A stretch of DNA of 64,000 nucleotides, taken from contig NMRA01000347.1 in assembly GCA_002633005.1 (NCBI GenBank), positions 248,001-312,000 on the forward strand. The letters run 5' to 3'. The notes under the pieces were generated by a model, which did no database searches, was not told the DNA's origin, and worked only from the letters and a program-made list of their open reading frames with translations. The position numbers and the translations under genes were made by a program. This stretch comes from Phoronis australis. Lineage: Eukaryota > Animalia > Phoronida. How positions within the stretch are numbered: position 1 is the stretch's first letter; every line of letters begins with the position of its first letter. Of the stretch, positions 21,950 to 49,424 are shown piece by piece.

Positions 21950-22050
21950 TTACATGTAACTACAGGAGGTGGTTGAATTACTGATGATGGGCTGTAATAG
22001 CTCGCTGTCATTGTTTGGATGGTAGAAGTCTGTGCACCTCGAAGTGGAAT
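21950..22050 (-). CDS. C3-like: C3-like exon 22 (MG8 end/anchor, stop codon)
   Basis: [36 protein letters not shown] at 21952-21950 followed by G|GTAAGG. Confidence 0.85.
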
Positions 22051-48600: not shown

Positions 48601-49424
48601 TGTAAACCCTTTACCACCACCTTCGCAGTTACTATCATTACCTGGCTGTATGCGTTTCTTCACAGGATCAGTACGCCACTCCCTGAACGGATAATCTTGA
48701 AGGCACAGTTCCAACTGCACTGGTTTGGTGGCCTTAAAAATCGTGATGATCACACTTTCTTCGACATCAAATCGCAGGATGTTCGGAACGCTGAGTAGAT
48801 ATTTGGGACTGTAAAAATTATCAAAGCATCGCCTATTGCTATGTTCATGCGGGTCAACTTTTCAGAAAGAATTACGAATTATATTGGTCATTTTCCAATG
48901 GCCTGCACTTGCCGACTGAAGCATGGTGAACTTATGCTTGGCGTGGACATGCCTCAAATTCAGGTCATTGGCTTTGACTTCCTGGCTGTGATACTGCATT
49001 GATTAATAACTCAAAAATTAAGCCCACATTTTCTGGTTCAGCATCCAAGCTTAGCTGCTCTTGCATGACCTAGATTAGTTGTAGAGTGTTTTTAATTTTA
49101 TCTTTGATGGTACTGTCAAAAATATCACTGACCTAATCTCAAATGAAGAAGTTGTTGTCTGTGTTAACTACCTGTATGTAGCACTTAAATTCAACCAGAT
49201 AAACAGGTAGGCAATTACATCGCCTTGAATGCCGCAGGCCGACCGAGGGGCTCTGTGTTGCCTAATAGACAGTCATTGTTTAAAAGTCATGCAGGACTGT
49301 GAGATATTCGACACCAAGTGACTAAATCCACTCACCTTGCTTTTGTTGACGACGGTGTTAGTAATAGCAGATATATGCACATCGTTGGTGTTGAAACACG
49401 AAACACCTCTTTCGTAGATACCAT
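21950..49424 (-). CDS. C3-like: Complement C3-like (thioester-protein family) gene, 22 exons, 1044 aa, lacking ANA, CUB-TED and C345C domains
   Basis: Exons (minus): 49424-49336, 48808-48642, 45518-45318, 44934-44864, 43439-43262, 42370-42292, 41361-41265, 40820-40611, 40334-40152, 39024-38914, 37744-37490, 37311-37072, 35979-35865, 30991-30844, 30208-29980, 29123-28914, 28437-28340, 26688-26596, 24579-24498, 23643-23569, 22477-22375, 22050-21950 (TAA). All introns GT-AG with compatible phases; sum 3135 nt. C3 motifs: [102 protein letters not shown]. Confidence 0.9.
22375..22477 (-). CDS. C3-like: C3-like exon 21 (MG8)
   Basis: [34 protein letters not shown] (cf. C3 [21 protein letters not shown]). 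Confidence 0.88.
23569..23643 (-). CDS. C3-like: C3-like exon 20 (MG8)
   Basis: [25 protein letters not shown] (cf. C3 YISKYE...TLIIYLDK). Confidence 0.85.
24498..24579 (-). CDS. C3-like: C3-like exon 19 (MG8)
   Basis: [27 protein letters not shown] (cf. C3 ILDISMMTGFAP). Confidence 0.9.
24730..26200 (+). mobile_element. Penelope-like retroelement 3' fragment (GIY-YIG endonuclease region), split by a MITE
   Basis: ALRANG..., [12 protein letters not shown]...KP...PKD...CGDIY and GEH..ATGH...E.NW..RKLKE..NI....LNRDGG motifs. Confidence 0.85.
25011..25895. mobile_element. Non-autonomous PIF/Harbinger-like DNA transposon (885 bp)
   Basis: Perfect 24-bp TIR TGCCCGGTTGCATGAAACAGTCCC; 3-bp TSD CAG at 25008-10 and 25896-98; subterminal repeats. 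Confidence 0.9.
26596..26688 (-). CDS. C3-like: C3-like exon 18 (MG8)
   Basis: [30 protein letters not shown] (cf. C3 MILEICTR); phase 2-2. Confidence 0.82.
28340..28437 (-). CDS. C3-like: C3-like exon 17 (MG8 start)
   Basis: [33 protein letters not shown] (cf. C3 TCNKFDLKVTI); CTAAT branch point, ttttcag acceptor, GTGAGT donor. Confidence 0.8.
28914..29123 (-). CDS. C3-like: C3-like exon 16 (MG7 end)
   Basis: VDVYAKV...[24 protein letters not shown]...[10 protein letters not shown]; phase 0-0. Confidence 0.92.
29980..30208 (-). CDS. C3-like: C3-like exon 15 (MG6-alpha/MG7)
   Basis: [17 protein letters not shown]...GFCVAE...[25 protein letters not shown]. Confidence 0.93.
30844..30991 (-). 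CDS. C3-like: C3-like exon 14 (alpha'NT/MG6-alpha)
   Basis: [49 protein letters not shown] (cf. C3 RSEFPESWLW). Confidence 0.88.
31850..33130 (-). mobile_element. 5'-truncated L1/Tx1-clade LINE ORF2 fragment in intron 13
   Basis: [19 protein letters not shown] motif, then a frameshifted zf-RVT-like [21 protein letters not shown]-rich; (TG)n and A-rich tail downstream. Confidence 0.85.
35865..35979 (-). CDS. C3-like: C3-like exon 13 (LNK end, beta/alpha furin-type site)
   Basis: [38 protein letters not shown]; donor GTAAGT, phase 1. Confidence 0.88.
36150..37062 (+). mobile_element. MITE family B copy (intron 12)
   Basis: CAGTGGTGGATCTAGGA start; long match to 51915-52698; ends at N 37063. 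Confidence 0.85.
37072..37311 (-). CDS. C3-like: C3-like exon 12 (MG6-beta/LNK)
   Basis: [14 protein letters not shown]...[19 protein letters not shown]...DNGYGIGGG...VLQ. Confidence 0.9.
37490..37744 (-). CDS. C3-like: C3-like exon 11 (MG5)
   Basis: VGSNAV...YMVTSGGQ...[12 protein letters not shown]...[18 protein letters not shown]. Confidence 0.9.
38914..39024 (-). CDS. C3-like: C3-like exon 10 (MG4/MG5)
   Basis: [37 protein letters not shown]; donor GTAAGA. Confidence 0.8.
40152..40334 (-). CDS. C3-like: C3-like exon 9 (MG4)
   Basis: [12 protein letters not shown]...[12 protein letters not shown]...ASIQ. Confidence 0.85.
40611..40820 (-). CDS. C3-like: C3-like exon 8 (MG3/MG4)
   Basis: MTNGRF...[13 protein letters not shown]...[24 protein letters not shown]. 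Confidence 0.9.
41265..41361 (-). CDS. C3-like: C3-like exon 7 (MG3)
   Basis: [32 protein letters not shown]; donor GTAAGT. Confidence 0.85.
42292..42370 (-). CDS. C3-like: C3-like exon 6 (MG3)
   Basis: [27 protein letters not shown]; donor GTGAGT. Confidence 0.9.
42585..42705. repeat. (TG)n microsatellite
   Basis: Direct reading. Confidence 0.95.
43262..43439 (-). CDS. C3-like: C3-like exon 5 (MG2)
   Basis: DPIGKVH...[18 protein letters not shown]...VQFEVKDY. Confidence 0.9.
44864..44934 (-). CDS. C3-like: C3-like exon 4 (MG2)
   Basis: [24 protein letters not shown]; phase 1-0. Confidence 0.85.
45318..45518 (-). CDS. C3-like: C3-like exon 3 (MG1/MG2)
   Basis: [11 protein letters not shown]...[19 protein letters not shown]; phase 1-1. 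Confidence 0.9.
48642..48808 (-). CDS. C3-like: C3-like exon 2 (MG1)
   Basis: tttttacag| (S)[24 protein letters not shown]...QDYPF...RIQP |gtaatg. Confidence 0.9.
49336..49424 (-). CDS. C3-like: C3-like exon 1 (signal peptide)
   Basis: ATG at 49424, [29 protein letters not shown], donor AG|GTGAGT; phase 2 fits exon 2. The second ATG (M15) could be the true start. Confidence 0.65.

Follow-up and report, generated by a model that had tools for sequence, protein, structure and literature searches.

A C3-derived gene of the phoronid Phoronis australis predicted to encode a macroglobulin ring without effector modules

The evolution of complement C3 is usually told as the insertion of an anaphylatoxin domain (ANA), a CUB domain with the thioester domain TED (CUB-TED) and a C345C domain into a ring of macroglobulin (MG) domains. 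Surveys describe this domain set as conserved, with losses mostly of the thioester motif or of ANA (parts of PMC8960428 and PMC11312191); in the relevant portion of PMC8960428, which covers 56 invertebrate species, 13 C3 domains are conserved and the thioester motif is lost repeatedly. Here we describe a gene in a 64,000-nucleotide stretch of DNA from Phoronis australis (Phoronida; assembly GCA_002633005.1, contig NMRA01000347.1, positions 248,001 to 312,000), hereafter the window, whose own numbering is used throughout. The gene is predicted to encode a C3-like MG ring from which all three modules are missing.

Loss of single modules has precedents. Gastropod type I C3 shares with our protein the loss of ANA and, unlike it, has also lost the beta/alpha processing site (passage in PMC8960428), and seabream C3.1.6 and C3.1.7 are without ANA (section of PMC7768046). 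Insect TEP1, iTEP, CD109 and A2M likewise have neither ANA nor C345C (PMC3464232, in part, where TEP1 is described with a TED), but they have CUB and TED, and placement of our protein with CD109, A2M or CPAMD8 is rejected below. In Biomphalaria C3-3, known from an incomplete sequence, the thioester domain is truncated (PMC9363628, in part), among the exceptions listed in the consulted section of PMC11312191 only a bird fragment, consisting of A2MR-C345C, is without A2M_comp, and the Lineus C3s are complete (PMC9835746, in part). C5, razor clam C3-like-3, gastropod type I and Biomphalaria C3-3 resemble our protein in having no working thioester, yet they keep the TED fold, truncated at most in Biomphalaria C3-3. 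Since single-module losses are on record, the novelty lies in a clean loss of CUB-TED together with the other two. An exact-phrase search of open-access text brought up no C3 or TEP in which MG8 follows directly on MG7, in line with the initial annotation of this locus, which had recognized no described TEP subtype; Supplementary Figure 2A of PMC8960428, a source represented here by part of its text, may bear on this novelty.

With invertebrate C3 our protein shares MG1-8, LNK, a polybasic beta/alpha site, the alpha'NT motif, an alpha/gamma-type insertion in MG8 and the anchor, but it is 1056 rather than ~1700 aa long, has no ANA core, CUB, TED or C345C, and has lost the LNK and anchor disulfides and the thioester-shielding residues of MG8. 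Because four defining C3 features (ANA, CUB-TED, thioester and C345C) are absent, we do not file the gene as C3. The vertebrate fragment C3c is also an MG ring with MG7, MG8 and anchor and without C3a and TED; it arises by proteolysis and keeps C345C, whereas our protein is gene-encoded and ends at the anchor. PDB chain 2a74_C of C3c has 343 aa, and the MG8-anchor match stops at its residue 198. The label 'C3c-like' first given to the protein is loose, since C3c retains C345C. Cobra venom factor is a C3 derivative whose mature form is without C3a and TED; CUB and C345C remain in it, and the convertase that it builds is stable. Our protein has neither CUB nor C345C and for that reason should not build a convertase; a role like that of cobra venom factor was ruled out.

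The window is intron-rich animal DNA with a GC content of ~40%. The gene runs on its minus strand from an ATG at 49424 to a TAA at 21952-21950 in 22 exons; all 21 introns (21/21) are GT-AG and phase-compatible, and the rebuilt open reading frame (ORF), a genomic exon-chain model, has 1056 aa and no internal stop. The initial annotation had reported an unbroken ORF in 22 exons, whose number, phases and frame we recovered, and a length of 1044 aa, which is 12 too few. The C3-type motifs that it listed are in place, namely AVDKAVY (37203), DNGYGIGGG (37122), CTDFYHP (22036) and the polybasic RSRRHRRR, the predicted beta/alpha cleavage site at aa 657-664. For exon 11, acceptor 37744 was chosen because it restores MG5, and a longer version (ORF from 37948) was dropped. 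The features of the gene are as follows, with matches to a C3 hidden Markov model (HMM) where they support an exon.

49336-49424, minus: exon 1, with the ATG and, in aa 1-29, a likely signal peptide; a second ATG is aa 15
45318-48808, minus: exons 2 (48808-48642) and 3 (45518-45318), MG1 and start of MG2; Pfam MG1 E 1.2e-8; C3 HMM 33 and 43 bits
43262-44934, minus: exons 4 (44934-44864) and 5 (43439-43262), MG2 (Pfam below cut-off); C3 HMM
40611-42370, minus: exons 6 (42370-42292), 7 (41361-41265) and 8 (40820-40611), MG3 and start of MG4; C3 HMM
38914-40334, minus: exons 9 (40334-40152) and 10 (39024-38914), MG4 and start of MG5; C3 HMM
37072-37744, minus: exons 11 (37744-37490) and 12 (37311-37072), MG5, MG6a and LNK; Pfam A2M_BRD E 6e-9 and 4e-7
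35865-35979, minus: exon 13, end of LNK and RSRRHRRR (about 35892-35869)
30992-35864, minus: intron 13, 4873 nt, phase 1, site of the lost anaphylatoxin core; contains a retroelement fragment
30844-30991, minus: exon 14, LGR-type site at aa 673-675 and alpha'NT with R..F.E.W motif
28914-30208, minus: exons 15 (30208-29980) and 16 (29123-28914), MG6b and MG7; Pfam A2M E 3e-22
28438-28913, minus: intron 16, 476 nt, phase 0, site of the lost CUB-TED-CUB block (~430 aa in C3)
26596-28437, minus: exons 17 (28437-28340) and 18 (26724-26596), a linker remodelled from the last CUB strand, then the beginning of MG8 and the alpha/gamma-type insertion
22375-24579, minus: exons 19 (24579-24498), 20 (23643-23569) and 21 (22477-22375), MG8 core with altered thioester-shielding residues
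21949-22050, minus: exon 22, end of MG8, anchor and TAA 21952-21950, followed by a consensus donor GT at 21948-21947

The leader in exon 1 contains a hydrophobic stretch (aa 12-25) and aligns with C3 leaders, the signal peptide being judged by hydropathy only. Exon 14 retains the final few residues of the ANA region, including the LGR-type site, and the MG8 insertion of exons 17-18 carries RxxR sites (aa 916-922). Exon 17 is supported by splice signals, frame and multiple alignment; on its own it has no match in the PDB. The predicted mature protein has an isoelectric point (pI) of ~9.1, with a linker of pI 12, and 12 N-glycosylation sequons. An odd number of cysteines (65, 812, 904, 967 and 1053) is without an assigned partner.

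An HMM of 55 C3/C4/C5 sequences matched the protein at HMM positions 5-673, 738-927 and 1359-1543 (E 1.6e-220) and was skipped at 674-737 (ANA), 928-1358 (CUB-TED-CUB) and 1544-1696 (C345C); by sequence profile there are eight MG domains, with LNK inserted in MG6. In Pfam scans of 21 of the 22 exons (exon 1 excluded), MG1, two copies of A2M_BRD and A2M scored above cut-off, MG2, MG4 and A2M_recep scored below it, and ANATO, TED and NTR had no match. The initial annotation had expected MG domains and A2M_recep without ANATO, TED or NTR. The motif GCxEQ is absent from all six frames of the window, and there is no cysteine between 544 and 747, the region in which a six-cysteine anaphylatoxin would lie. 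Intron 16 cannot hold the ~430 codons of CUB-TED because it is 476 nt long.

Remnants of the modules were sought with domain HMMs in all six-frame pieces of the window, and power was gauged with six divergent C3/C5 proteins cut into pieces of 35 aa, with any control that belonged to the set of an HMM removed from it. No CUB-TED remnant was found in the window, where the best piece reached 5.2 bits compared with 42-48 in the six controls. For ANA no remnant was found either: the best piece of the window scored 10.8 bits on the wrong strand (controls 11-34), and none of the top six hits lay in intron 13. The search for C345C was likewise negative, with a best score of 9.3 bits upstream on the wrong strand and no minus-strand position downstream of the gene among the top six hits; its controls gave 17-27 bits in five of six and 7.9 in one. 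The same procedure recovered the four exons of this gene that encode MG8 and the anchor, at 12-19 bits. A scan on splice and codon scores detected no exon of coding character downstream on the minus strand, a 101-N gap at 15821-15921 being outside its view. Thus, the loss of TED in the window is firm, and the losses of ANA and C345C are well supported, having been tested less sharply, with moderate power. The in-frame loss of all three modules claimed at the outset is borne out by the HMM gaps, the Pfam scans and the remnant search.

MG7 and MG8 matches were present together in 187 other proteins, and TED was present in 187/187, which leaves our protein as the only one without it; the 187 were drawn from 285 proteins gathered with C3-like queries, are in many cases redundant and do not amount to a census. 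MG7 and MG8 are 71 aa apart in our protein and at least 345 in the others, one multi-copy protein aside. Four database C3 models seem to be without ANA, P0001 by alignment and P0167, P0251 and P0269 by the absence of an ANA match; the last three have C345C and 29-34 aa between LNK and MG6b, and may be real losses or annotation errors.

Inside the ORF there is no disabling change, although a nonsense change could account for the terminal stop. Simulated unselected copies kept frame and splice sites in 142/1000 cases at 1% divergence and in 3/1000 at 3%; with indels added, 11/1000 did so at 1%. Selection is indicated indirectly, because the frame is intact and yet the closest relative found is only 33% identical. 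Near-invariant columns were retained at 60/67 in MG1-7, as in other divergent C3s, compared with 6/15 in the MG8-anchor part (Fisher p 1e-4, an overstatement, since one motif supplies four of the columns). Cysteines were mostly kept or lost in pairs, which we take to be those of the human C3 disulfides: 544/747, 872/1029 and 935/997 are kept, whereas both LNK cysteines (one replaced by Tyr), the conserved MG7 cysteine (with Cys812 close by) and two of three anchor cysteines are lost. Cys544 lies in exons 11-12 and Cys747 in exons 15-16. These signs of long selection after the loss of the modules appear supported.

We scored five MG8 positions that presumably shield the thioester: a Met corresponding to Met1400 of human C3, the VIFY-strand Tyr and the three Tyr of YDYY. 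None of the five is kept in our protein (0/5), the first being ambiguous since a Met adjoins that position, and one Tyr to Gln change is identical to that of C5. The comparison set comprised 76 representatives, obtained from 166 proteins with both domains by thinning at 70% identity. Among the thioester-intact ones all five residues were kept in 62/66 and four in 4/66; thioester-less ones (n=10) kept one to four. In the A2M family the thioester lies in a pocket of aromatic MG8 side chains (stated in part of PMC9156758), and a literature search found no paper naming the human shielding residues. Because none of the five survives, the loss of TED looks old, and the gene may be read as a natural experiment on MG8 in which the shielding residues decay once TED is gone. 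Five thioester-less C3-like proteins, including those of a tick and a jellyfish (P0074, P0179, P0135, P0055 and P0049), have eroded shielding residues too, so this motif may mark thioester loss.

The best matches of the protein were hemichordate and amphioxus C3s at 31-33% identity, headed by Ptychodera flava XP_070581805.1 (P0018), Glandiceps talaboti P0176 and Branchiostoma P0172 and P0173. Identity over MG1-7 was 27-33% to the best C3s versus 21-26% to the A2M/CD109 branch. A FastTree analysis limited to MG1-7 gave weak support (0.645) to a position at the C3 base, adjacent to A2M/CD109; with MG8 added (871 columns) the protein fell inside bilaterian C3. The latter tree held 42 of 53 sequences, 11 partial or near-duplicate rows having been dropped, with TEP1 itself outside it; it was assessed without bootstrap, by the Shimodaira-Hasegawa-like approximate likelihood ratio test (SH-aLRT) and by approximately unbiased (AU) tests on a fixed backbone. 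Over 24 placements the AU test rejected CD109 (p 2e-9), CPAMD8 (4e-6), A2M (1e-50) and the base of all C3 (1e-4), and a C10 mixture model over nine placements upheld the CD109 and C3-base rejections. The AU tests also rejected a sister position to hemichordate C3s (p 0.0003 and 0.01), which score top, yet have short branches. Nemertean, vertebrate-stem, base-of-bilaterian and hemichordate-amphioxus-Lingula placements were not separated. The trees and AU tests bear out the C3 origin proposed initially, inside bilaterian C3 and not in A2M/CD109, and the gene likely arose as a duplicate.

That the architecture belongs to a real, selected protein is, in our judgment, quite probable. For its function, we give a probability of roughly 0.4 to a non-activatable secreted decoy that damps the animal's own C3 convertase. 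The signal peptide judged by hydropathy would direct secretion, and furin would cut at RSRRHRRR and perhaps also at the RxxR sites of the MG8 insertion, giving chains of ~71, 30 and 15 kDa joined by Cys544-Cys747 and Cys872-Cys1029. With no TED, covalent attachment would be impossible, and with neither C345C nor CUB the loading of factor B/C2 would be lost. In human complement, C2 and factor B load via C345C, with contacts to CUB, MG2, MG6, MG7 and alpha'NT, and convertases grip their substrate C3 by MG3-MG7 and the scissile loop (passages of PMC12922740, which also mentions a C345C-MIDAS contact). Our protein retains the LGR site and the R..F.E.W plug, so that MG3-MG7 faces and an Arg-ended loop would remain, a convertase would be occupied and the opsonin yield would be nil. 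A decoy is the simplest role, since the loading parts are mostly lost and the parts gripped by convertases are kept. It is more doubtful that the gene is a dedicated complement regulator, built from C3 by deleting all effector modules, and as such a new TEP subtype. A decoy would parallel, in nature, the inhibitors that act by blocking the MG4-MG5 face, and a scaffold-only regulator would mean that selection can act on a function of the MG ring by itself; a selected protein of this kind would give a direct test of the ring's own role and of restraint in invertebrate complement.

Several points weigh against the decoy. Its mechanism is borrowed by analogy from human structures. At 1.25 substitutions per site the branch of the protein is very long, and a new role would account for that just as well as a decoy would; four of the nine MG8-anchor columns lost are one remodelled motif, and the residue counts score related sequences as separate. 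No orthologue was found among the best 150 of 869 phmmer matches to exon 15 (best 47%), in word-based searches of longer proteins (one match each, 43% identical for exon 12 and 42% for exon 15) or in metagenome contigs; the ESM Atlas gave generic A2M_BRD clusters only. Gene structure and junctions come from genomic sequence of one assembly. The main opening for a pseudogene is the stop codon, which occupies the Glu position of the anchor CxCAE motif, one base change from GAA, and is followed after 1 nt by a perfect donor, AAG/GTAAGG, scoring 10.9, the maximum of the gene (matrix from its own 21 donors, which score 4.9-10.9). We take this donor to be that of the ancestral phase-1 intron before C345C, as in the human gene. 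Either splicing of the mRNA leads to a last exon that is non-coding, or the stop arose recently. For a weaker phase-2 donor (5.6) immediately before the stop, no suitable exon to read on into was found. A recently dead gene would be a divergent copy of C3 that last acquired a nonsense change ahead of C345C and has yet to decay, and the missing orthologue would suit it as well. We nevertheless consider it improbable, because the intact frame and 21 intron boundaries permit only about 1-2% neutral drift, a downstream C345C exon was not found in the window, anchor and MG7 cysteines have already changed, and erosion is focused on the TED-facing motif rather than even. Least probable of all is an artefact of assembly or gene model in which exon blocks dropped out of a full C3. 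Reliance on a single assembly and the 101-N gap, which lies 6 kb downstream and could hide exons, leave room for it, but three separate clean in-frame losses would be required, introns 13 and 16 contain no N run, intron 16 shares no repeat with the window, and changes in residues of MG8, in the linker of exon 17 and in cysteine pairs are beyond what an artefact can produce.

Two further explanations accept a selected protein. It may have a positive role as a non-covalent opsonin or adaptor that binds microbes, for instance by its basic surface and Arg-rich linker, and shows MG3/MG4/MG6 to integrin- or Ig-type receptors, an explanation we regard as unlikely and still the strongest rival of the decoy. 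In agreement with it, the ring is contacted by CR4 at MG3-MG4 and by CRIg at MG3/MG6 (PMC4451739, in part), thioester-less TEPs reportedly retain immune functions (in part of PMC7016707), the protein and above all its linker are basic, and the ATG is preceded at 113-137 nt by two kappaB-like sites, weak evidence picked post hoc; no pattern-binding domain has been gained, however. Cleavage could also release an 11-residue mini-anaphylatoxin ending in LGR, which may serve as a minimal signal. The motif is the sole support for such a peptide, and it may be chance, because invertebrate C3 cleavage sites vary (passage in PMC8960428). Co-option outside complement, as a matrix, mucus or carrier scaffold or as a protease bait with the Arg-rich linker as bait, would suit the long branch and the sequons, and the odd unassigned cysteines could link chains. 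We judge it about as improbable as a dead gene, since the protein retains processing sites of C3 type and the plug motif of alpha'NT, monomeric A2M-family inhibition needs the thioester (stated in part of PMC9156758), and no membrane anchor was found in the 1056-aa model (best 19-mer hydropathy 1.39).

Around the gene, a credible Pfam match to a neighbouring gene was found in none of the 138 ORFs of the window, which gave one match to a long interspersed nuclear element (LINE) above cut-off and one match below it. The former is a LINE retrotransposon fragment at 32122-33020, minus strand, in intron 13 (Pfam zf-RVT, E 4e-9). In intron 18, fragments on the plus strand at 24612-26195 resemble the end of a Penelope-type retroelement and are flanked by a 19-bp repeat array at 25821-25876; an ORF at 25866-26192 has ESM Atlas neighbours that include clusters with GIY-YIG in 17% of members. 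Plus-strand exon-like pieces at 11268-11470, 13142-13248 and 15443-15571, together with ORFs 3525-3887 and 10623-10916, have good splice and codon scores and suggest a convergent neighbouring gene that reaches at least 15571.

Upstream of the ATG on the minus strand there are three kappaB-like motifs, two of them within 140 nt, at 49537-49561 and 50800-50808. The window holds 14 such sites against 8.9 expected, and the three in the 1.5 kb upstream, no clear excess over chance, were not counted as evidence because another 1.5-kb window holds 5. Besides the 101-N gap there are single Ns at 11517, 37063, 56200 and 61475, none of them exonic. Dispersed repeats of 69-77% identity are shared between the two flanks, pairing ~16150-17140 with 57979-58979 and ~19720-20050 with 62954-63270.

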